The notes under the pieces were generated by a model, which worked only from the letters and a program-made list of their open reading frames with translations, ran no database searches and had not been told where the DNA came from. A DNA stretch of 64,000 bases from a virus, in IMG/VR virus record IMGVR_UViG_3300045988_073070; one strand, written 5' to 3'. Both the position numbers and the translations under genes were made by a program. Positions 23,049 through 64,000 of the stretch are shown one piece after another (the first letter of the stretch is position 1; the number at the start of each line of letters is the position of its first letter).

Positions 23049-23146
23049 AAGAACTTGCGAAAACCCAATTTAAGTTTGGTTTTACCTGAGAATTGCTTAA
23101 CAAAAGTTAAATTTTTGGGTAAAACCAAACTTTTTTCGTAAAAAAT

Positions 23147-23177
23147 TTTGTAGTTTGGAAAATAGTCTCTATCTTTG
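23147..23177 (+). promoter_or_regulatory. Bacteroidota sigma-A-type promoter, copy 1 (-33 TTTG / 19 nt / -7 TAtcTTTG)
   Basis: TTTG at 23147-23150 and TATCTTTG at 23170-23177. Part of a conserved block, 'ttttgtagtttgg..', found in three copies. Confidence 0.75.
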
Positions 23178-23186
23178 TATCAGAAT

Positions 23187-23203
23187 CGTAAATCAAATTG
23201 TAA
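23187..23203 (+). promoter_or_regulatory. start-codon-abutting tandem AAATTGTAAA-like motif
   Basis: 'cgtaaatcaaattgtaa' lies directly before the ATG at 23204. Confidence 0.6.
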
Positions 23204-23854
23204 ATGACGATGGAGAAAAAACAAAAAATTTCAGAAACTTTGTACCATAGATACGAGTATCTTGCAAAGAAATATGCAAGCCGTATTTATTCATACGAAC
23301 AATTATCATACGAGTTCGATGATTTGGTGCAGGAGTTCCGAATAAAGATATTCACGTCAATAAAGAGCTACGGAAAGCGTTGGTTAAAATATCGGAAAGA
23401 AGGTTATGCGAAACCTGTGCCCTTGAAATATTATCTTGAAGCTGCTTGTGCTAATAAAATGAGAGACTTCATGAAATATATAACAAGGGAAAATTACAAA
23501 GTAAGGATTGACGAAATCAATTATGACTTTGGGGTGGAAATGGATTCCGAGATTATTCCAGAGCTTAACAAGTTCGTCATTAACGGAATAGATTTATTGG
23601 AAGGATTAACGGGAAAGGAGAGAGCAATATTCAGTTTGTATCTCCGTGGGCATAGCTCAAAAATTCTTACCAAAGTTTATTTTAACAACGCCAAAGAGAA
23701 GGCAAAACGAAAAGAAATTTTGGACAGTGGTGACGAGCCGTTTGGAGTAGCAGATATAATAGAAATGCAATGTAACTTCTTAATCAAAAAGTATGGTAGT
23801 GAATTGCAGCAACTCCGTAGGACTTTCGCAACTTACAACTTTGATGAAGAGTAA
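23204..23854 (+). CDS. sigma-70-family-like transcription factor (regions 2 and 4)
   Basis: Region-2-like 'DDLVQEFRIKIFTSIKSY ... YLEAACANKMRDFMKYITRE' and region-4-like 'LTGKERAIFSLYLRGHSSKIL'. First gene after strong promoter copy 1. Confidence 0.55.
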   Translation: MTMEKKQKISETLYHRYEYLAKKYASRIYSYEQLSYEFDDLVQEFRIKIFTSIKSYGKRWLKYRKEGYAKPVPLKYYLEAACANKMRDFMKYITRENYKVRIDEINYDFGVEMDSEIIPELNKFVINGIDLLEGLTGKERAIFSLYLRGHSSKILTKVYFNNAKEKAKRKEILDSGDEPFGVADIIEMQCNFLIKKYGSELQQLRRTFATYNFDEE

Positions 23855-23899: not shown

Positions 23900-25243
23900 A
23901 TGGCAACTAAATTGACCGCCAATGTGGCAAAGAGAGTTAAAGCATTAGGAATTAATGCAACAACTGACGAGGCAGCACGCCCAAAACTTCTGGAAATTCT
24001 GGAAGAGAATGGAATTGAGCAGATGGACGATGAGGACATCACAACTCTGGTAGAAATCGCAGAATCTTTCGTGGACGCAGATGCGGACGGGGATGATGAA
24101 GGAGACGAAGAAGCGGAAAACGATGCTTTGGCTGAAGAAGTTGAAGAGGAAGAAAAACCGAAAAAGGGAGCAAAGAAAGCTACCAAGAAAGCCGAGCCTG
24201 AACCCGAAGAAGAAGATGAGGACGAGGAAGAAGAAAGCGATGATGAGGAAGAATCTGACGAGGATTCCGAAGAAGGCGATGAGCTTGACGACATGGACAG
24301 AGGTGAGTTGAAAGACTACATCAAAGAAAACGAATTGGAAATCACCGTGAAGAAATCTTGGAGTGATGACGACATTCGTGAAAAAATCCGTGAAGCTATG
24401 GGCGATGAAGAGGATGAGGAAGAAGATGAAGCACCTGCTCCGAAAAAGAACGCCAAAACTGCGGCTGCTCCGAAAAAAGAGGAAAAGAAAGCCGACAAAA
24501 AAGAAGCTCCGAAGGCTTCAGCCAAAAAGGAAGACAAACCGAAGGCTGACAAAAAAGCTACTGCGAAACGTGGTAACAAACTTGACCCGAAGAACAACGA
24601 AGAAGACAGAAAACATTTTGACTTCTTGAAGAAGTTGTTCCCTGAAAAAGATTACATCTATGCTTGGGTTGCAAGTGCTGGCGTAACAATCAAGTACAAA
24701 GGCAAAAACAGCAACCGTTCTCTTATCAGCCTTGAAAATTGTACGCTCAAGGGAGAAGGAAAGAATGCGGTTATGACTTGCAACCTGTACCTGCTTATCT
24801 TCAACGGCAAATACGAAGCGTTGGAAAAAGCCGAAGTGGAATATGAAAAATGTTGGAGTGGTGCTCCGATGTTGAAAGCTATCGAAGTAAGCGAAGCCGT
24901 TGAGGTCATTGAATCTCTGAAAGACGAAATGGACAAGATGGTAGGCGGTATCGACAAGAAGTTGGGAGACAACCGCAAGAAAATGGAAGAAGGTTTGAAG
25001 AAGGACAAGAAAGCTGCCGGCAAAGCATCATCCAAGAAGGCTTCTGACGATGAAGAGGAAGAAGATGAGGACGAGGAAGAACAGCCGAAAGCAAAAGCGA
25101 AACCTGCCGCAAAGAAGGCTTCCAAAAAGGTAGAAGTGGAAGAGGACGAAGAAGATGAGGATGACGAGGAAGAAGCACCCGCACCGAAAAAGAAAGCGAC
25201 CTCAAAGACCGCTACCAAGAAAACGGTAAACAAAAAGAAATAA
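23900..25243 (+). CDS. highly charged Glu/Asp/Lys-rich protein with HeH/SAP-like modules and a central globular domain
   Basis: 447 aa with long D/E and K/A/P tracts. Module 'DDMDRGELKDYIKENELEITVKKSWSDDDIREKIREAM' is shared with the ORF at 31623. Confidence 0.5.
   Translation: MATKLTANVAKRVKALGINATTDEAARPKLLEILEENGIEQMDDEDITTLVEIAESFVDADADGDDEGDEEAENDALAEEVEEEEKPKKGAKKATKKAEPEPEEEDEDEEEESDDEEESDEDSEEGDELDDMDRGELKDYIKENELEITVKKSWSDDDIREKIREAMGDEEDEEEDEAPAPKKNAKTAAAPKKEEKKADKKEAPKASAKKEDKPKADKKATAKRGNKLDPKNNEEDRKHFDFLKKLFPEKDYIYAWVASAGVTIKYKGKNSNRSLISLENCTLKGEGKNAVMTCNLYLLIFNGKYEALEKAEVEYEKCWSGAPMLKAIEVSEAVEVIESLKDEMDKMVGGIDKKLGDNRKKMEEGLKKDKKAAGKASSKKASDDEEEEDEDEEEQPKAKAKPAAKKASKKVEVEEDEEDEDDEEEAPAPKKKATSKTATKKTVNKKK
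24287..24400 (+). repeat. HeH/SAP-like module, paralogous copy A
   Basis: Roughly two-thirds aa identity (by eye) to the module at 32742-32855. Confidence 0.8.
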
Positions 25244-25272: not shown

Positions 25273-25306
25273 GGAGTAGCTTGTAAAAGTTGCTCCTTTT
25301 CTTTTC
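25273..25306 (+). terminator. rho-independent terminator (loop TTGTAAAA family)
   Basis: GGAGTAGC / ttgtaaaa / GTTGCTCC followed by TTTTCTTTTC. Confidence 0.75.
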
Positions 25307-39017: not shown

Positions 39018-40508
39018 ATGAAACCGAGTAAATATCAAGAAGCGATTTACAAAACATTCAAATTAACCAAGCGAGACATTAACATCTCAGCCGTTGCGGG
39101 TTCAGGGAAAACAACCGTATTATTGGAGCTATTGAAGTATGTTCCTGACGGGGCAAGTTCTCTGTTCCTTGCTTTTAACAATTCAATCATTGACGAGTTA
39201 AAAGACCGTAACACCCGAAGGGATGCCGAGATAATGACGATACATTCTTGCGGTTGGCGTTCTATTCTTTGTAGATATGGAAGCCGAGCAAAATTGAATC
39301 CGAATAAGGGAATTGCTAAAACGGAACAAGTTTTGAAGAAATTCAAAGACGAGATTGGAGATAAGCAACGTGGGTGGTTTTTCTTTATCATTCCGAAGCT
39401 CCTTGACTTGTTGCGTTGTAACCTTTTGGAAAACGAGAAGGAATCATTTGAATGGATTGCCGAGCATTATGACTTCAATATATCGGAAATTGAAATCAAA
39501 ATAGCTATCGAAGTATTCAAGCTCATGCAGAAGGACAAAGGTCAATTTGACTTTATGGATATGATTTATCAACCCGTTGTTGATGCGTCAATCCGATTCC
39601 GAAAGTTTGATTTTGTACTTTGCGATGAAAGCCAAGACTTTTCAGTTTGCCAACACGAGTTTATAAAGCGTTGTTTGAATCGAAAAGGCAGACTTATAAC
39701 GGTTGGAGATAGGAGACAAGCAATATATGGTTTTGCGGGAGCTGATGCGGAATCGTATGATAAGTTAGCAGAGATAAACGGAAAGGCAATCAAGTTACCA
39801 CTTTCAGTATCGTACCGTTGCGCCAAATCAATAGTCCGAGAAGCCCAAAAGATAGTTCCTGAAATCTCTTATGCTCCGCACGCTATCGAAGGAGAAGTGA
39901 GAGATGGAAGCCTTTTGGAATTGGACTATGGAGATTGGATTCTTTGTCGTAATTTGAAGCCGTTGGTTCAAACCTACCTTTGGTTGATGAAGAATAAAAT
40001 CAAGTCAAAGATTCGAGGCAAGGAAATCGGAGAAGGGATATTGGCGTTGATTAGCAAAACAGGCGGTAAAACGATTGACGGATTGTTAAGAAATCTTGAT
40101 TTGGAAAAGGAGAAACTTCACAACAAGCTAAAACAAAGAGGGGTAAAACGACCGAGCTTGCACCCGAAGATGGAAGTGTTGATGCAAAAGATAGAAGTTA
40201 TCGAATGTCTGTGTGAAGAAGTAGATACTGTTAAGGACTTGAGAAATTTGATTAGCAATATTTTCTCTGACGAGGTTAAAGGAATACTGTTAAGCACTAT
40301 ACATAAGGCGAAAGGATTGGAAAATGATAAAATATTCTTTCTTTCGCCAGAGTTAATTCCAAGTAAGTACGCAACCCAGCCGTGGCAGTATGAACAAGAA
40401 CAAAATCTCAAGTATGTAGCAATAACAAGAGCCAAAAGTTCATTAGTGTACGTATGGGGAAACGTGTTTACAAAAGATATACAACAACGAATTAAATTAT
40501 CAAGATAA
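39018..40508 (+). CDS. UvrD/PcrA-type SF1 DNA helicase
   Basis: 'AVAGSGKTTVL', 'VLCDESQDFS', 'TVGDRRQAIYGFAGA', 'SYRC', 'STIHKAKGLE' and 'YVAITRAKSSL'. Confidence 0.9.
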   Translation: MKPSKYQEAIYKTFKLTKRDINISAVAGSGKTTVLLELLKYVPDGASSLFLAFNNSIIDELKDRNTRRDAEIMTIHSCGWRSILCRYGSRAKLNPNKGIAKTEQVLKKFKDEIGDKQRGWFFFIIPKLLDLLRCNLLENEKESFEWIAEHYDFNISEIEIKIAIEVFKLMQKDKGQFDFMDMIYQPVVDASIRFRKFDFVLCDESQDFSVCQHEFIKRCLNRKGRLITVGDRRQAIYGFAGADAESYDKLAEINGKAIKLPLSVSYRCAKSIVREAQKIVPEISYAPHAIEGEVRDGSLLELDYGDWILCRNLKPLVQTYLWLMKNKIKSKIRGKEIGEGILALISKTGGKTIDGLLRNLDLEKEKLHNKLKQRGVKRPSLHPKMEVLMQKIEVIECLCEEVDTVKDLRNLISNIFSDEVKGILLSTIHKAKGLENDKIFFLSPELIPSKYATQPWQYEQEQNLKYVAITRAKSSLVYVWGNVFTKDIQQRIKLSR

Positions 40509-41474: not shown

Positions 41475-41508
41475 GGAGTGGCTTGTAAAAGTCGCTCCTT
41501 TTTATTTT
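41475..41508 (+). terminator. rho-independent terminator (loop TTGTAAAA family)
   Basis: GGAGTGGC / ttgtaaaa / GTCGCTCC followed by TTTTTATTTT. Confidence 0.75.
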
Positions 41509-47882: not shown

Positions 47883-48371
47883 ATGGAGCAAGAAATAGCA
47901 GCATTGTATGAACGTTTGTTACGTCAAGCCAAGTTCTACTATCCGAGAAGTACGGATGACGCATATGACCTTTGTAATGATACGATGGTAAAGATGCTAA
48001 CTAACCAAGACAAATTCCAAGAAGGTACAAACTTATACGGTTGGGCGTGTATGATTATGCGCAATCTCTTTATCAACGATTATCGAAGGACTTCCAGACA
48101 AGGCTTTGTAATGGAAAGCGAACAAGAAGGTGCGGATGTATTTGGACGGCTTGAACTCTTTGCTCCTGATACGGACGATTATTCAAGAGAATTGGACATA
48201 CGGGAAGCAATTGATGCACTACCAGAAAACGAGCGTGTTTGTATTAACTATTTGATTTGCGGTTATTCCTACGAACGAATGGCAGAGATATTTGAAGTAC
48301 CAATCGGAACGGTCAAAAGCCGTATTCATTTAGCAAGAAAGAAGTTACAAAAAGTCTTGACGAGATATTAA
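47883..48371 (+). CDS. ECF-type sigma-70 family RNA polymerase sigma factor
   Basis: Region 2 'DAYDLCNDTMVKMLTNQDKFQEGTNLYGWACMIMRNLFINDYRR'. Region 4 'LPENERVCINYLICGYSYERMAEIFEVPIGTVKSRIHLARKKL'. Confidence 0.85.
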   Translation: MEQEIAALYERLLRQAKFYYPRSTDDAYDLCNDTMVKMLTNQDKFQEGTNLYGWACMIMRNLFINDYRRTSRQGFVMESEQEGADVFGRLELFAPDTDDYSRELDIREAIDALPENERVCINYLICGYSYERMAEIFEVPIGTVKSRIHLARKKLQKVLTRY

Positions 48372-49412: not shown

Positions 49413-49433
49413 TTTTCATTATGATGATTTGGG

Positions 49434-49467
49434 AAAGCTCTGGTTTGCGAAAATCGGAGCTTTTTTT
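49434..49467 (+). terminator. rho-independent terminator
   Basis: AAAGCTCTGG / tttgcgaaaa / TCGGAGCTTT followed by TTTT. Confidence 0.8.
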
Positions 49468-49539
49468 GTTGCCTTTCGTTAAAAAGTTACCAAGAAAAGT
49501 TAAATATTGTCGATTTACCAAAAATAATTTGGAAAAAGT

Positions 49540-49570
49540 TTTGTAGATTAAATTATTGTTCGTACCTTTG
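49540..49570 (+). promoter_or_regulatory. Bacteroidota sigma-A-type promoter, copy 2
   Basis: TTTG at 49540-49543, 19-nt spacer, TACCTTTG at 49563-49570. Confidence 0.75.
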
Positions 49571-49657
49571 TACCGTAATCAAGAACGAAACATCTGTTAA
49601 GGTTACAAAGTTAGAAACAATAAACATTAAAATATCAACTTATAAAATTTGGAAATT

Positions 49658-50893
49658 ATGGCAACGAAAGTAAACAACAATCAGGTAAACGAGAGCGCAA
49701 ACGAAATGATGGACGCAAGAATCGTTAAATTGAATGAATTGAAAGGTGTAAAGATGGCAAACCTTTCCAAAGGTAAACGACCTGCTGCGAAGGAAGCAAA
49801 GCTCCAAGCAACGTACATTCTTGACAATTGGGATAACGAGTTTGAATTGGTGAAGATGCTTAATGATACCGAAGTCGTATTCAATGATGATATCAAAGCT
49901 ATCCTTTCCAGTCGTCTTCAAAACTTTGCTGACGCCAAGGAAGCGTGCAAGAAGGCGGTTGAGGAAGCTCCGAAGAAGGAGAAGAAAGCAAAGGCTCAAC
50001 CCAAAGAAGAAGTCAATCAGGAAGCTCCGAGCGTTAAACTGACCAAGAACGAAATGGAAGTGCTTATTGGTATGGCGGTTAATGCCGACCATTACGGAGA
50101 ACATAACGCATTTGTATTATCGGAAATCAAATTGGAACGCCCAAGAAGCATCAACTCACTTTCAGGTACAATGTCGGCTTTGAATAAGAAGGGTATGCTG
50201 TTAGCTTGCAATGGAGATAGCTATTTTGACGGTGAATTAACCGAAGCTGGTTTGGCTATGGTAGGTGATATCACTCCGCATTTGAAAGCCTCAAAGAAAT
50301 TCAAAGTAGCAGCAACGGACGCAAAGAAAGCTACCAAAGCTGAATCAACTCCGATGGCAGAGGCAAAGAAACCGACCGAGAAGAAAGAAGCTACCAAACC
50401 AGCAACATCTACAAAGAAGGTTGGCGATATTCATAAGAATGGCAAATGGGTATGGACTGAATATGCTCCTGGCAAATTCGATTGGCGGACTATTCCGAGT
50501 ATGAAGCAGAAAACGGGAGCAAAACCGAAGGTTGAAACCGAAGGTAAGAAAGCGGAGAAGAAGCAGACTGCTATGAAGTCAAACAAGGCTGAAAAGAGCA
50601 CTGCTAAGCAAACGAAGAAGGGTGAGCCGAAGAAGAACTCACCCGAAGCTCCGAAAGTGCTTACAATTGATGGATTTGTGGCTCTGCCCGTCAAGACTGC
50701 TAAAACTAACAAGAAACCTTCACCAGCTCAAGCCGAAGCATTGAAACTTATCAACAAAGGGTATCGGATAACGGCTGACCAAAAGTTCTTTGAGAAGGAT
50801 GGAGACCGCAAGAGTTGCAATATGGATAGCGTTACAGCGATGTTTAAGAGATACGGCATTGATTACATTCCCGAAGGACTTATCATCAAATAA
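49658..50893 (+). CDS. Lys/Ala/Pro-rich DNA-binding-like protein with a winged-helix-like segment
   Basis: ATG at 49658. 'LTKNEMEVLIGMAVNADHYG..SLSGTMSALNKKGMLLA' is flanked by K/A/E/P-rich, histone-H1-like tracts. First gene after promoter copy 2. Confidence 0.4.
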   Translation: MATKVNNNQVNESANEMMDARIVKLNELKGVKMANLSKGKRPAAKEAKLQATYILDNWDNEFELVKMLNDTEVVFNDDIKAILSSRLQNFADAKEACKKAVEEAPKKEKKAKAQPKEEVNQEAPSVKLTKNEMEVLIGMAVNADHYGEHNAFVLSEIKLERPRSINSLSGTMSALNKKGMLLACNGDSYFDGELTEAGLAMVGDITPHLKASKKFKVAATDAKKATKAESTPMAEAKKPTEKKEATKPATSTKKVGDIHKNGKWVWTEYAPGKFDWRTIPSMKQKTGAKPKVETEGKKAEKKQTAMKSNKAEKSTAKQTKKGEPKKNSPEAPKVLTIDGFVALPVKTAKTNKKPSPAQAEALKLINKGYRITADQKFFEKDGDRKSCNMDSVTAMFKRYGIDYIPEGLIIK

Positions 50894-56355: not shown

Positions 56356-56453
56356 GCCATGCTGAGAATCGGGAAAATAGGCAAGCTCACGAGCCGCCAA
56401 AAGCCTAAAAAGGCAAGCACTCCGTAACGCAAAAGAAGTTACCAAAAGTTAAA

Positions 56454-56490
56454 AGCGAAGTTTTTACCAAAATTCTTCGCTTTTTATTTT
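56454..56490 (+). terminator. rho-independent terminator (overlaps the -33 region of promoter copy 3)
   Basis: AGCGAAG (56454-56460) / CTTCGCT (56475-56481) followed by TTTTATTTT. Confidence 0.75.
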
Positions 56491-56518
56491 GTAGTTTGTA
56501 AAATAGTTCCTACCTTTG
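56488..56518 (+). promoter_or_regulatory. Bacteroidota sigma-A-type promoter, copy 3
   Basis: TTTG at 56488-56491, 19-nt spacer, TACCTTTG at 56511-56518. Confidence 0.75.
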
Positions 56519-56545
56519 TAACATAAACATTAAAATTACAAAGAT

Positions 56546-56782
56546 ATGAGAGCAAAACGGATAATGATAACAGTTCTTCCTACAAGAGAAGATTTGTCAA
56601 AAGAGGAACAAGAATTTTTGAATACTTGTAAAATTAACCAATCTGTATATCTTACAGATAAACCTATGGAAGAGGTAAAATCATACTTATACGGAGCTGG
56701 GAGAAATTCATTTGAATTTATTCTTTCCAGAGTAGATGAAATATGTTATAATTCTATGGTAAGAGAGGGATTCATATCATGA
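56546..56782 (+). CDS. hypothetical protein
   Basis: 78-aa ORF; first gene after promoter copy 3. Confidence 0.4.
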   Translation: MRAKRIMITVLPTREDLSKEEQEFLNTCKINQSVYLTDKPMEEVKSYLYGAGRNSFEFILSRVDEICYNSMVREGFIS

Positions 56783-56967
56783 GAACACGTACTTTCATAA
56801 TCATATTGTTGGTAGCTCTATTCGGGAGCTACCTATACATCAAACTTGTTTGGGGAAGTTTCGGAGCTTTCATGACAGCGTGTCTCATCAAGTCCGTTAT
56901 CGGAGTAGGATGTTTGGTTGTTATATTGTTAGCAACGTTAATTATATCAAAAATCAATCGAAAATGA
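56779..56967 (+). CDS. small membrane protein (two TM segments)
   Basis: 'FIIILLVALFGSYLYI' and 'GVGCLVVILLATLIISKI'. Confidence 0.45.
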   Translation: MRTRTFIIILLVALFGSYLYIKLVWGSFGAFMTACLIKSVIGVGCLVVILLATLIISKINRK

Positions 56968-57161
56968 AAATTGTTATGCGAATATTGTATGCTATTGACG
57001 GAAGGTTTGGACGTAGAGTTCTCAAACCGCAATACCGAGTTTGGTGGAGACTGTTTACCTACGGAACACTGACGGTGTTACTATTCAGATTTGTATTTGT
57101 ACCGATTCTTGATTGGTGGCAAGGCGTTGTAGATTTTCTTAATTATGTAATTTGGGGATGA
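56964..57161 (+). CDS. small membrane protein
   Basis: ATGA-coupled ATG at 56964 ('MKIVMRILYAIDG..'). TM segment 'LFTYGTLTVLLFRFVFVPIL'. Confidence 0.4.
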   Translation: MKIVMRILYAIDGRFGRRVLKPQYRVWWRLFTYGTLTVLLFRFVFVPILDWWQGVVDFLNYVIWG

Positions 57162-57162
57162 T

Positions 57163-57309
57163 ATGAAAGTATTGGAATTTATATTTAGCAGCTTTTGGAC
57201 GTTCATTGGTTCGGTTATCCTGATAGGTTTATTCTTTCAAGGCGTTGCTCAAGTTATCCGAGCGATTAAAGGAACGCCAGAGCCAAAAGACGAAAACGAT
57301 GAAGATTGA
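57163..57309 (+). CDS. small membrane protein (48 aa) not in the supplied track
   Basis: 'MKVLEFIFSSFWTFIGSVILIGLFFQGVAQVIRAIKGTPEPKDENDED'. Confidence 0.4.
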   Translation: MKVLEFIFSSFWTFIGSVILIGLFFQGVAQVIRAIKGTPEPKDENDED

Positions 57310-57547
57310 AACAGCCGAAAAGGTCATCAAGAAGATGTCTTGGGAAATAACGAAGCAAGAACGATTCCTTGGACTTGTATCAAGAGCCAATCAGATGAAG
57401 CCCAAAGACCGAGAGAATGTATTGAAGGGAGCTTGTTGGATTGACGGCACAATCGAAACCCAAATCAAGTTTGCGATGGATAAGAGAGCGAGACTGGTGA
57501 AGGCACGTTCAACTCTATCGAAACGATATGGAATATCAATCTATTAA
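57299..57547 (+). CDS. hypothetical protein
   Basis: ATG at 57299 ('MKIETAEKVIKK'). Confidence 0.4.
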   Translation: MKIETAEKVIKKMSWEITKQERFLGLVSRANQMKPKDRENVLKGACWIDGTIETQIKFAMDKRARLVKARSTLSKRYGISIY

Positions 57548-57634
57548 CCACATTTGCTGACGATTAACCGAGAGGATGAAGGGAAATACCTTCACGGATA
57601 ACGAAAGAGGCAGAGCAATCAAATTTTAAGCATC

Positions 57635-57820
57635 ATGGAAGATATTAAACAAAGACAGATTGAACAGCTCCAACGTGACATAAGGATTCTGGAAGAAATT
57701 ATTTCAGGCAAGATGGAGAATTACACCAGTCATCCAATTCCAGTCCTCAAAGAAGGTTTATCGAAGTACCAATCAGATTTGGCGAGGTTACAAGAAAACG
57801 TTGGGCAAAGGGGGAATTAA
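57635..57820 (+). CDS. small coiled-coil protein
   Basis: 61-aa ORF flanked by noncoding islands carrying G5 boxes. Confidence 0.35.
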   Translation: MEDIKQRQIEQLQRDIRILEEIISGKMENYTSHPIPVLKEGLSKYQSDLARLQENVGQRGN

Positions 57821-57968
57821 AAGGGGGTTACTTCACGAGCGTATGCGAGTGCACGAGGAAACAAGATTTTCAAGATAATTGAATATAGTTTCTTTGGGCA
57901 CTTTCTTTGATATATAAGGGGGTTCATGAACCAACGTTACTTCCTTCCAGATATAAAACAAAGACGAT

Positions 57969-58538
57969 ATGGAAATTGTAAAGAAAATAGCAAAATGGAT
58001 TCTCCGAGAGGAACTGAACGACCTTCAGACCACCGTGAATAAGCAAGCCCACGATAAGGTTGAAATGAACAAGCAGATAGCGAGTTTGAGAGAAAGGTTG
58101 TTTGGTTCAAGAAAAGTCCTACTATCCCAGACGATGGTAGAATGTATTGTTAAAATGCTACCTGACCCGAACAAAGCAGGTTGTGGCGGTTTAACTTCTT
58201 CGGACTTGAAAATGCGAAACATGATTTTTGTAGATGAACTTGGCGGACGACAATATCAACACTCCGTTCGATTCGTTCAGGCTATCGGAGACGATGAACG
58301 GTTACAAGGTTTAACCATAAACATATCCGAATACAATATCAATGTGTTCGTCCCATTGAGACGGGAGAATGTGAGTTATGAGGTATTCGGAGTACAAACC
58401 GCAATAGATACTTACTTTTGGGACTTGTATGGAGCAGGCATACGAATGTTGAGCAACGAAGCCTTTGCGATGAGTTCCGAATTTATCAACGCTCAGCATA
58501 ATGTTTTGAAAGAATTTAGAGAACAAGGATTGTTATGA
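57969..58538 (+). CDS. hypothetical protein
   Basis: 189-aa ORF. Confidence 0.4.
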   Translation: MEIVKKIAKWILREELNDLQTTVNKQAHDKVEMNKQIASLRERLFGSRKVLLSQTMVECIVKMLPDPNKAGCGGLTSSDLKMRNMIFVDELGGRQYQHSVRFVQAIGDDERLQGLTINISEYNINVFVPLRRENVSYEVFGVQTAIDTYFWDLYGAGIRMLSNEAFAMSSEFINAQHNVLKEFREQGLL

Positions 58539-58855
58539 ATATATTGAACCAAGAAAGTTTTTGTCGTCATTGGTGTAATGACTACGACAAAGTAATGAAG
58601 GAACAGACCGAAGAATGCGAATGTATTGTAGCTTGTTCAAGTTCGGAGAACGGAATGAATCCAGATGCCTTTGCTGCACAAGGATTGATGATGAAAACCG
58701 AAGAAGAATTGTTTGAGGAAGCCTTGAAAAATTTTGCTAAAAGTGTGTTATTTACAAAAGATGGTTCATTTTGCGTAGATGACTTTGAGAAATATTGGGA
58801 AGATAACAAAGACAAATTATTGAAATATGACCAAAGTGAGATTAAGCCAAATTGA
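58535..58855 (+). CDS. hypothetical protein
   Basis: 106-aa ORF with an ATGA overlap. Confidence 0.4.
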   Translation: MNILNQESFCRHWCNDYDKVMKEQTEECECIVACSSSENGMNPDAFAAQGLMMKTEEELFEEALKNFAKSVLFTKDGSFCVDDFEKYWEDNKDKLLKYDQSEIKPN

Positions 58856-59276
58856 GGAAGGAAGCGGAAAGCCGATGTTCACCCGAAAGCATAAAGGAAC
58901 GACAAAGAAGAAGCCTTTGATTGGAGACATAGACGAAGATGATGAAGAGGATGAAGAGGATTCGGACGATGACTTCAACGACAATGAGGATGAAGGCAAG
59001 AAGCGGTTATCAAAAACAATGCTTCACTTCAAAGACGAAGGAATAACCATATCAGCTTGGGACTTACATACCATTGAAACTGATATGCGATTCGTAGAGA
59101 AGCCGAAAGCCCACTGGGAGTTTGGAATCACTATCAATAAGGGATTGAATCCCAGTCAGTTTATCAATAAAACCGACCTTTCTATGTGGTATTTAAGCGA
59201 GGAAGTAAGGGATGATAAAATGGCAAAAATGCTGGAAATCCTTAAAGTAGAAGGACTCAACGTTATCGAGATATAG
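58827..59276 (+). CDS. hypothetical protein with an acidic tract (alternative start at ATG 58875)
   Basis: 'DIDEDDEEDEEDSDDDFNDNEDEG'. A purine-rich stretch precedes the ATG at 58875. Confidence 0.4.
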   Translation: MTKVRLSQIEEGSGKPMFTRKHKGTTKKKPLIGDIDEDDEEDEEDSDDDFNDNEDEGKKRLSKTMLHFKDEGITISAWDLHTIETDMRFVEKPKAHWEFGITINKGLNPSQFINKTDLSMWYLSEEVRDDKMAKMLEILKVEGLNVIEI

Positions 59277-63063: not shown

Positions 63064-63084
63064 TAATTCATAATATAGTGTGGG

Positions 63085-63123
63085 AGCTAACAAGGAGCAA
63101 TCTTTGTTAGCTTTTGCCGTTTT
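63085..63123 (+). terminator. rho-independent terminator
   Basis: AGCTAACAA (63085-63093) / TTGTTAGCT (63104-63112) followed by TTTGCCGTTTT. Confidence 0.75.
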
Positions 63124-63136
63124 AAGACGTTTGTTT

Positions 63137-64000
63137 ATGTTAGTAGATTCTTCAGGCACTTTGTTACTTCAAACTCCGATGCACCGATTGGAGTGTTTGA
63201 ACGTTGTTGATGAAATAATCGAAGGACTTGATGAGCGAGGAATCAACGAGCTTTTGGAAGGCTCAGAAGGCGACTTGGATTTTGTTATTGATAATTTAGT
63301 CCGAGATACTTTTGAGGTAATGTACACGGGAAAGACTGATATTGACTTTTCTCCTAAATACACCGACCGTCTTTCAGAATCAATTGAGGAAACGTTAAGG
63401 ACAAGAAACCTTACATATTTTATCACTTCGGTGATGCCCGACTTTCAATTGTCTTGGCATCATTTGGAATGGGGAGACTTGGTGCACCGATATAGGAAGC
63501 TGTGTATTGAGGCAGCACGTGACCATGGTAAATCTTTCTATTTCTCCAATGCTTATGCAGCTTGGCAATTGTATAAGTATGCCCGACCGAAGGGAACAGT
63601 ATTTTCAGCCAGACCTACCAAATCAAATTCCAATCGTGGTTATCTCTTTTCGTTCTCTTTGCAACAATCCGTTGACCTTATGGAGATTCTCAAAGGAACG
63701 ATTGAGAGCAACGATATATTGAGACAAAGACTTTTCCCAGATTCAAAACAAAGCGGAGCTTGGGCAAGTACGAATATAGTATGTAAGAACGGAGCGAGAT
63801 TGACGTGTAAGGGATTTGGGTCATCAGTACGTGGTGCTCACCCGTTCTGGATAGTAGTAGATGACGGATTAAAAGATAACGTCATATACAGTCAGCTACA
63901 AAGGCAGAAAAGCATTGATTATTTTCATTCGGTTATTATGAACATGCTTGTGCCAGGTGGGCAGATTATTGTTGTTGGTACTCCATTCCACGCTTCGGAT
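63137..64000 (+). CDS. terL: terminase large subunit, 5' partial (runs off the window end; absent from the ORF track)
   Basis: My own translation from the ATG at 63137 is open for 288 codons. It contains 'IEAARDHGKSFYFS' (Walker A-like), 'AHPFWIVVDDG' (Walker B) and 'IIVVGTPFHASD' (coupling motif). Confidence 0.8.
   Translation, partial: MLVDSSGTLLLQTPMHRLECLNVVDEIIEGLDERGINELLEGSEGDLDFVIDNLVRDTFEVMYTGKTDIDFSPKYTDRLSESIEETLRTRNLTYFITSVMPDFQLSWHHLEWGDLVHRYRKLCIEAARDHGKSFYFSNAYAAWQLYKYARPKGTVFSARPTKSNSNRGYLFSFSLQQSVDLMEILKGTIESNDILRQRLFPDSKQSGAWASTNIVCKNGARLTCKGFGSSVRGAHPFWIVVDDGLKDNVIYSQLQRQKSIDYFHSVIMNMLVPGGQIIVVGTPFHASD

Follow-up and report, generated by a model that had tools for sequence, protein, structure and literature searches.

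Bacillus phage SPO1, with its hydroxymethyluracil DNA, uses host sigma-A at its early promoters and afterwards the phage sigma factor gp28 and then gp33/34. In Bacteroidota, the distance between the -33 TTTG and the -7 box is reportedly 19-21 nt, as Bayley et al. are said to have found in 2000, and a promoter of a Bacteroides phage, P_BfP1E6, was reportedly presented by Whitaker et al. in 2017. A preprint describes P_BfP1E6 with UP elements and the -7 consensus (bioRxiv 10.1101/2025.03.18.644028). UP elements (Ross et al. 1993; Estrem et al. 1998; cross-phylum survey PMC12641261) consist of A/T-tracts upstream of the -35-equivalent with a phasing of ~10 bp. The PeSL cassettes of the T4-type phages phi1 and RB49 (Arbiol et al. 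2010, PMC2839356) combine a host-consensus early promoter of sigma-70 grammar with a terminator stem-loop and an AT-rich upstream region.

We analyzed a 64,000-nt stretch of viral DNA (hereafter the window), in which three dispersed repeats had been predicted to be promoters of the Bacteroidota type. The repeats are probably strong, near-consensus promoters for the host primary RNA polymerase (sigma-A/sigma-ABfr type), embedded in terminator-promoter cassettes of an uncultured ~97-kb gut phage. A phage that borrows the strongest promoter design of its host is a clear and fairly ordinary case; what this analysis adds is a map of five units, the recognition that one box belongs to the arm of a terminator, and a distal word whose position is locked as in the host.

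Core promoters and their frequency

A pattern scan of the 64-kb window located exact TTTG-N19-TAnnTTTG sequences at 23147-23177 (cassette 1), 49540-49570 (cassette 2) and 56488-56518 (cassette 3), all of them exact matches to the sigma-ABfr consensus of Bacteroidota (PMC7366714), as had been claimed. The spacer between TTTG and TAnnTTTG measures 19 nt in 3/3 window copies, in line with the original prediction, and also in every cassette of the relatives. The -7 box reads TATCTTTG in cassette 1 and TACCTTTG in cassettes 2 and 3, and an extended core, TTTTGTAG(T/A)TT together with TA(T/C)CTTTGTA, is found in 3/3 copies; the three aligned blocks with their boxes and extended core are thus present as had been described. 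In a repeat search, these copies formed one family (D7; 48 nt, 65-81% identity), and MAFFT aligned them. All long ORFs of the window are on the + strand, and the three core promoters are intergenic and on this gene strand, the box ending 26-27 nt (cassettes 1 and 3) or 87 nt (cassette 2) before the ATG.

Across the whole window, TTTG-N18-20-TAnnTTTG gave 5 matches vs 1.6 expected. Masking of the 82 + strand ORFs left 4566 nt of intergenic DNA (7.1% of the window), for which ~0.01 exact sites are expected by chance, as estimated from base frequencies. The three copies were the sole intergenic sites of the window, even when the + strand was searched under relaxed rules (<=1 mismatch, spacer 17-22); additional hits at 63103-63314 fall within a GTG-start ORF (63080-64000) and hence are not intergenic. 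The repeat observation is confirmed as real and far beyond chance. The statement that no other such sites exist is correct for the intergenic DNA of the window but not for the genome, since the near-identical complete relative G002 has five. Sites of the TTGACA/TATAAT type are no more frequent in the window than expected by chance (50 found vs 51.2 expected, and 45 found vs 47.5 expected).

Sequences with one mismatch to TTTG-N19-TAnnTTTG are in excess window-wide (31 vs 13.1 expected), mostly on the - strand within genes, and the real intergenic DNA contains 0 extra one-mismatch sites on the gene strand. The T-rich antisense strand probably explains this excess, through its base composition or through codon usage.

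Structure of the three cassettes

In four host FopS genes, the G that closes TAnnTTTG is followed 5 nt later by the 5' end given in Rfam; transferred to the cassettes, this distance yields the predicted transcription starts named below. All features are on the + strand. Cassette 1 begins with a predicted terminator (23072..23132), a long imperfect hairpin (-28.5 kcal/mol, z -7.5) with a T-run at 23131-23136, an apical stem TTAAC-AAAA-GTTAA and a 3' arm that contains AAAGTTAAA and GGTAAAACCAAAC. Its distal box AAAGTTAAAT (23103..23112) has a GTTAAAT core ending 34 nt before the -33 TTTG, at ~ -76 to -70 relative to the predicted start. The core promoter (23147..23177) comprises the -33 TTTG (23147-23150), a 19-nt spacer with an A-tract, and the -7 box (23170-23177); the predicted start is A23182, with a 22-nt leader (23182..23203) that carries the word AATCGTAAATCAAATTGTAA. 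Unit 1 encodes a divergent sigma-like protein of 216 aa (23204..23854) and a highly acidic, charged protein of 447 aa (23900..25243) with D/E-rich repeat families D1-D5, for which no Pfam or PHROG match was found, and ends with a terminator at 25273-25305 (family D6).

Cassette 2 has a predicted terminator hairpin of 16 pairs followed by T7 (49431..49466; -18.2 kcal/mol, z -3.0), the upstream boxes AAAGTTAAAT and TTTACCAAAA (49496..49523; GTTAAAT ends 34 nt before the -33) and a core promoter (49540..49570) with orthologues in three relatives (G002, G003 and G004). From the predicted start, G49575, an 83-nt leader containing ATAAACATTAAAAT would extend over 49575..49657 to the first gene of unit 2 (49658..50893), which encodes a protein of 411 aa with K/A/P/T-rich tracts and without a family match in Pfam or PHROG. 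In cassette 3, the distal box AAAGTTAAAA and a terminator-like hairpin AAAAGCGAAG...CTTCGCTTTT (56451-56484) together occupy 56445..56484 (gap 33; -12.7 kcal/mol, z -5.0); TTACCAAAA lies in the loop of the hairpin, and its U-run runs into the -33. The core promoter (56488..56518), located by the pattern scan and in relatives, is followed by the predicted start A56523, a 23-nt leader with AAACATTAAAAT (56523..56545) and the first gene of unit 3 (78 aa; 56546..56782).

Among the upstream words, AAAGTTAAA is present in all three cassettes (23103-23111, 49496-49504 and 56445-56453), GGTAAAACCAAAC in copy 1 (23118-23130) and TTTACCAAAA in the other two (49513-49522 and 56463-56472), the latter two boxes both containing ACCAAA. 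The leader word said to be common to copies 2 and 3 is the exact 14-mer ATAAACATTAAAAT (49621-49634 and 56524-56537), which occurs in those two leaders only; its distances from the start codon are unequal in the two cassettes, and it is largely kept in G002 and G003. Rfam and tRNA scans of the window gave no match.

Terminator hairpins

According to folding energies and z-scores, a stable hairpin with a U-run is located directly upstream of the -33 in 3/3 cassettes, which agrees with the terminator or hairpin originally reported ahead of every copy. The hairpin of cassette 1 is kept in the consensus fold of 7 distinct orthologues with compensatory changes and many G.U pairs; e.g., GTTTGGTTTTACC/GGTAAAACCAAAC of the window is replaced by ATTAGGTTTGCC/GGCAAACCTAAT in another phage. 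Because G.U pairs function only in + strand RNA, the structure of cassette 1 appears to be an RNA-level terminator and not a palindromic operator, and it is the predicted terminator of the upstream primase operon. In copy 1, GGTAAAACCAAAC represents the 3' arm of this covarying hairpin and AAAGTTAAA the 3' half of the stem at its apex. The box words also persist in copies 2 and 3, where they stand outside such a hairpin, and they are therefore conserved as DNA too. Among the upstream boxes described earlier, the GGTAAAACCAAAC box of copy 1 therefore has to be reinterpreted as a terminator arm, whereas conservation at the DNA level stands for the words in the other two copies.

Two near-identical terminators of family D6 (25273-25305 and 41475-41507) share GGAGT(A/G)GCTTGTAAAAGT(T/C)GCTCCTTTT, and a GTTAT(C/T)AAC-like stretch lies between each of them and the next gene. 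These stretches could be promoters for a phage sigma factor; a 7-mer count for a shared motif of this kind in other intergenic regions revealed nothing convincing.

Distribution of cassettes among related phages

The complete relative G002 (96.5 kb, ~98% identical to the window) was used to represent the whole genome of ~97 kb; no cultured relative close at the DNA level was found in the phage collection searched. G002 has five cassettes, the three of the window and two (cassettes 4 and 5) located ~2.5 and ~4.1 kb beyond the window end, which precede genes for a UvrD-like helicase and a DUF2786/DUF7168 protein, respectively. All five are in the non-structural half of G002, and no cassette was found in its structural half. 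In whole-record scans, G003 had five cassettes, G004 ~5 and the distant, 107.8-kb G408 eleven, a range of 5-11 in related ~100-kb phages; the sites were always on the gene strand, and only 0-2 sites per record were counted when the pattern was reversed as a control. Related phages have conserved the cassettes at orthologous positions. A search with the sigma-like protein encoded behind cassette 1 retrieved 15 viral loci (60-99% protein identity), most of which keep cassette 1, i.e., the -33 with a preceding A-tract, the spacer A-tract and TAnnTT(T/C)G, between flanks that diverge; the core is conserved in the orthologues L001, L002, L005, L007, L008, L013, L014 and L094.

Each genome has its own extended spacer/-7 context, e.g., CCACTA before the -7 box in G408. 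These genome-specific spacers could reflect a phage-specific co-factor that also reads the promoters, and could equally have arisen by gene conversion between cassette copies, which is how we read them. The eleven promoters of G408 (L274-L294) share a genome-specific design consisting of a AAATCTTGA-like box, a short GC-rich hairpin (e.g., CCCGG-N8-CCGGG), TTTC, and TTTG-N19 that includes the CCACTA; the architecture resembles that of the window cassettes, the sequence is different. We also noted two UvrD-like helicase paralogues of 37% identity, one in the window (39018-40508) without a host-type promoter and the other (L029:1558-3030) behind cassette 4, past the window.

Gene replacements at cassette edges

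The cassettes bound gene replacements between close relatives. At the position of gene 56546 (78 aa), the ~98%-identical relatives G002 and L338 both have the G002 allele, a different gene, and G003 has a third one. Between the window and G002, a near-exact match extends from cassette 3 to the first bases of gene 56546 (56549), where the sequences diverge, and identity is regained at ~56774, just before the next ATG (56779). G003 retains just a 107-nt island (56442-56548) between unrelated genes, and the homology with G003 around cassette 2 sets in at the cassette terminator (49433). Variable regions of small genes lie behind cassettes 2 and 3, conserved genes behind cassettes 1, 4 and 5, and there are only five copies per genome. 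The region 56546-59100 is hyperplastic in comparison with ~98%-identical relatives: besides the swap of its first gene, it has a segment of 137 nt (57162-57297) with a presence/absence pattern and a replacement at 58540-58817.

The distal GTTAAAT word

In the phage cassettes, the core GTTAAA(T/A) of AAAGTTAAA precedes the -33 TTTG by 33-34 (or 22-23) nt: among 16 cassettes of the phage family with GTTAAA[AT], the gap was 34 nt in nine, 33 nt in four and 22-23 nt in three, which are the modes of the host. A search of IMG/VR and GTDB for AAAGTTAAA placed 20-45 nt before an exact core recovered unrelated phages and genomes of Bacteroidota, whose gaps formed clusters at 24-25 and 34-35. The 9-mer plus exact core occurs at ~0.1 per genome (401 genomes), indicating that it is not a common site; this frequency excludes AAAGTTAAA as a frequent binding site of a host transcription factor.

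The 7-mer GTTAAAT was searched upstream of exact core promoters in 151 genomes of the family to which a MAG titled 'uncultured Bacteroides sp.' belongs and gave 97 matches, grouped into 69 clusters, vs 3 control matches. The gap to the -33 TTTG was 33-34 nt in 24/69 clusters (binomial p 3.5e-12), 23-24 nt in 13/69 (binomial p 4e-4) and 44-45 nt in 7/69, so that the host modes for (G/C)TTAAAT correspond to 10-bp phasing; in the upstream regions of the phage, A- and T-tracts alternate with a period of ~10 bp. The twenty host sites that were examined (L340-L359) belong to FopS sRNAs (Rfam RF04319), tRNAs, the Bacteroidales SRP RNA and assorted protein genes, and several of them display a tandem GTTAAAT-N3-GTTAAT. 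The control word CTTAAAT had the same but weaker peak (9/49 clusters, p 0.004), and the comparison of 9/49 with 24/69 clusters gave Fisher p 0.06 for specificity of the first G. As CTTAAAT peaks too, the distal element is better termed a phased TTAAAT/A-tract word than a specific site.

The upstream element thus looks like a UP-like element and not like a phage-specific operator. The original prediction had offered a shared regulator or a UP element for the upstream boxes; the position of the word at the distance from the -33 that is preferred in the host supports the UP element as the better fit, and the shared regulator less so. In the literature searched, we found no description of a GTTAAT element in Bacteroides or of a locked (G/C)TTAAAT word. 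Two further interpretations of the boxes were rejected: a divergent - strand promoter (TTTGGT...TAACTTTT) would have a spacer of 16 instead of 19-21 nt in a region where all genes are on the + strand, and a tandem second + strand promoter lacks a -7 box at the right distance.

Host and sigma-like genes

At the gene starts of the window, the SD core is not enriched (14.6% vs 14.8% background) and A is enriched at -3, -6 and -12 to -14, an A-rich, SD-poor context that has been given for Bacteroidota (PMC7366714). The DnaE-type polymerase has its best matches in phages of Chryseobacterium, Cellulophaga, Tenacibaculum and Bacteroides. Promoter grammar, start context and DnaE matches are three independent lines that support Bacteroidota as the probable host phylum; the host assignment made earlier from the promoters has thereby been joined by two lines that agree with it.

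The protein encoded at 23204, previously called sigma-like, matches Sigma70_r2 with a score below the Pfam cut-off (E 0.0024) and PHROG 1740 (sigma factor) with an E value of 5e-4; Sigma70_r2 matches were obtained for 6/9 of its orthologues (best 3.3e-4). A profile search against PDB gave no match, and the AF2 model (pLDDT 58) was too poor for use. The sigma-like identity is therefore weakly indicated, by PHROG and the orthologues but not by Pfam or PDB. A clear ECF-type sigma factor is encoded at 47883-48371, and a programme of host sigma followed by phage sigma is plausible.

Proposed function and alternative explanations

We propose that each cassette (~105-140 nt) begins with a terminator hairpin and U-run that would insulate its unit from upstream transcription, continues with a region of A/T-tracts bearing the distal GTTAAA(T/A) 33-34 nt before the -33 TTTG (one helical turn less in cassette 4), and then presents the -33 TTTG, the 19-nt spacer with its A-tract, the -7 TA(T/C)CTTTG, and a short, A-rich, SD-less leader up to the start codon. 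Host RNA polymerase would use the cassettes immediately after infection, the upstream region may act as a UP-like enhancer, and five units would be transcribed: the sigma-like and acidic proteins, the lysine-rich protein with small genes, the small-gene block, the UvrD-like helicase, and the DUF2786/DUF7168 protein. Recombination between cassettes may shuffle the genes behind them.

The boxes (the palindrome TTAAC-N4-GTTAA, GTTAAAT and ACCAAA) might instead, or rather in addition, since this would add to the promoters and not replace them, be the site of a specific phage or host regulator that switches all five units, which we regard as unlikely. Each genome has kept them in 4-5 of its cassettes, different genomes have them in common, the tandem arrangement at several host sites is typical of dimeric or tandem DNA binders, a box centre near -73 or -63 would suit a class-I-type activator, and a regulator has been proposed for the FopS promoters (PMC11697453), the factor suggested to boost these sRNA promoters being the host candidate. 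The peak of the one-base control CTTAAAT, however, argues against a specific site, as does the heterogeneity of the host genes behind the sites (tRNA, SRP RNA, sRNAs, guaB, transketolase, serpin); furthermore, the box decays in more distant orthologues in which the -33/-7 persist, the boxes of cassette 1 are accounted for by the covarying RNA hairpin, and no co-occurring candidate regulator was found. A more specific version, in which GTTAAAT near -73/-63 is the docking site of a specific host activator of FopS, tRNA and SRP RNA genes that has been copied into all early promoters of the phage, seems rather improbable to us; if true, early transcription of the phage would be coupled to the growth or stress state of the host.

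ECF sigma factors commonly autoregulate, and ECF promoters differ in architecture from promoters of the host primary sigma. That a phage sigma (23204, 38041 or 47883) and not host sigma-A reads the cassettes, making them middle rather than early promoters, might be suggested by the conserved spacer and extended -7 context peculiar to every genome, and by the presence of at least one clear ECF-type sigma besides the sigma-like protein directly behind cassette 1. Yet boxes and spacing are those of the host primary-sigma consensus, nearly identical to host tRNA/sRNA promoters and different from the ECF architecture, and the first phage sigma gene needs prior transcription, for which the window has no other host-type promoter; we judge this explanation very unlikely. 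The breaks in homology between relatives at cassette edges, and the repetition of short boxes in both orientations (TTTGGTAAA and TTTACCAAA), would also be compatible with signals that act mainly at the DNA level (recombination sites, origin iterons or packaging signals), their likeness to promoters being incidental. But every copy has the orientation of the genes and precedes a start codon by 26-88 nt, conservation is highest in the columns of the -33 and -7 boxes, whose spacing is fixed, and repeated promoters are known to recombine as a side effect, as in PeSL (PMC2839356), so that an incidental likeness is hardly credible. Host primary-sigma promoters within terminator-promoter cassettes remain the interpretation that we favor.

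Comparison with known systems

From the cassettes, a predicted transcription map and a probable host phylum can be given for an uncultured gut phage of ~97 kb that is common and encodes its own sigma-like factors. As compact modules that would unite a strong promoter with a terminator, they are candidates for expression parts in Bacteroides. The locked (G/C)TTAAAT word in promoters of the Bacteroides family (33-34 nt upstream of the -33, or closer by one helical turn), a by-product of the analysis, may prove the most broadly useful result.

The layout resembles that of SPO1 in that consensus host promoters precede a phage sigma-like gene and several sigma-like genes are present; a cascade is plausible, the host phylum differs, and the likeness to SPO1 is one of layout. 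With sigma-A promoters of Bacteroidota (Bayley et al. 2000; Vingadassalom et al. 2005; B. thetaiotaomicron dRNA-seq map PMC7366714), the cassettes share the exact boxes, the 19-nt spacing, the A-tract in the spacer and the SD-less leader, and they are almost identical to host tRNA and FopS promoters. They differ from host sigma-A promoters, in which TTTG is followed by CA instead of TA, and also in being phage-borne and in forming five near-copies with extended identity (TTTTGTAG, CTTTGTA), known here from sequence. P_BfP1E6, from a different phage, is alike in its description: it is phage-borne, very strong, of the sigma-A type and equipped with UP-like upstream elements. Like UP elements, the upstream regions have A/T-tracts with ~10 bp phasing, although the conserved word lies unusually far upstream (~ -76 to -70) and a contact with the alpha C-terminal domain is putative.

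The closest counterpart in organization are the PeSL cassettes, which likewise join a host-consensus early promoter, a terminator stem-loop and an AT-rich upstream region, and which likewise mark breakpoints of gene replacements; the repetition of PeSL cassettes ahead of small or unknown genes has its parallel in cassettes 2 and 3. PeSL cassettes follow the sigma-70 grammar and number ~50 copies per phi1/RB49 genome, whereas those described here have the Bacteroidota -33/-7 without SD, number 5-11 per genome and, unlike PeSL, carry the stem-loop upstream of the -33, with the U-run merging into it. The terminator-promoter cassette of the T4 style, as a joint for gene shuffling, would thus also exist in the promoter grammar of Bacteroidota.
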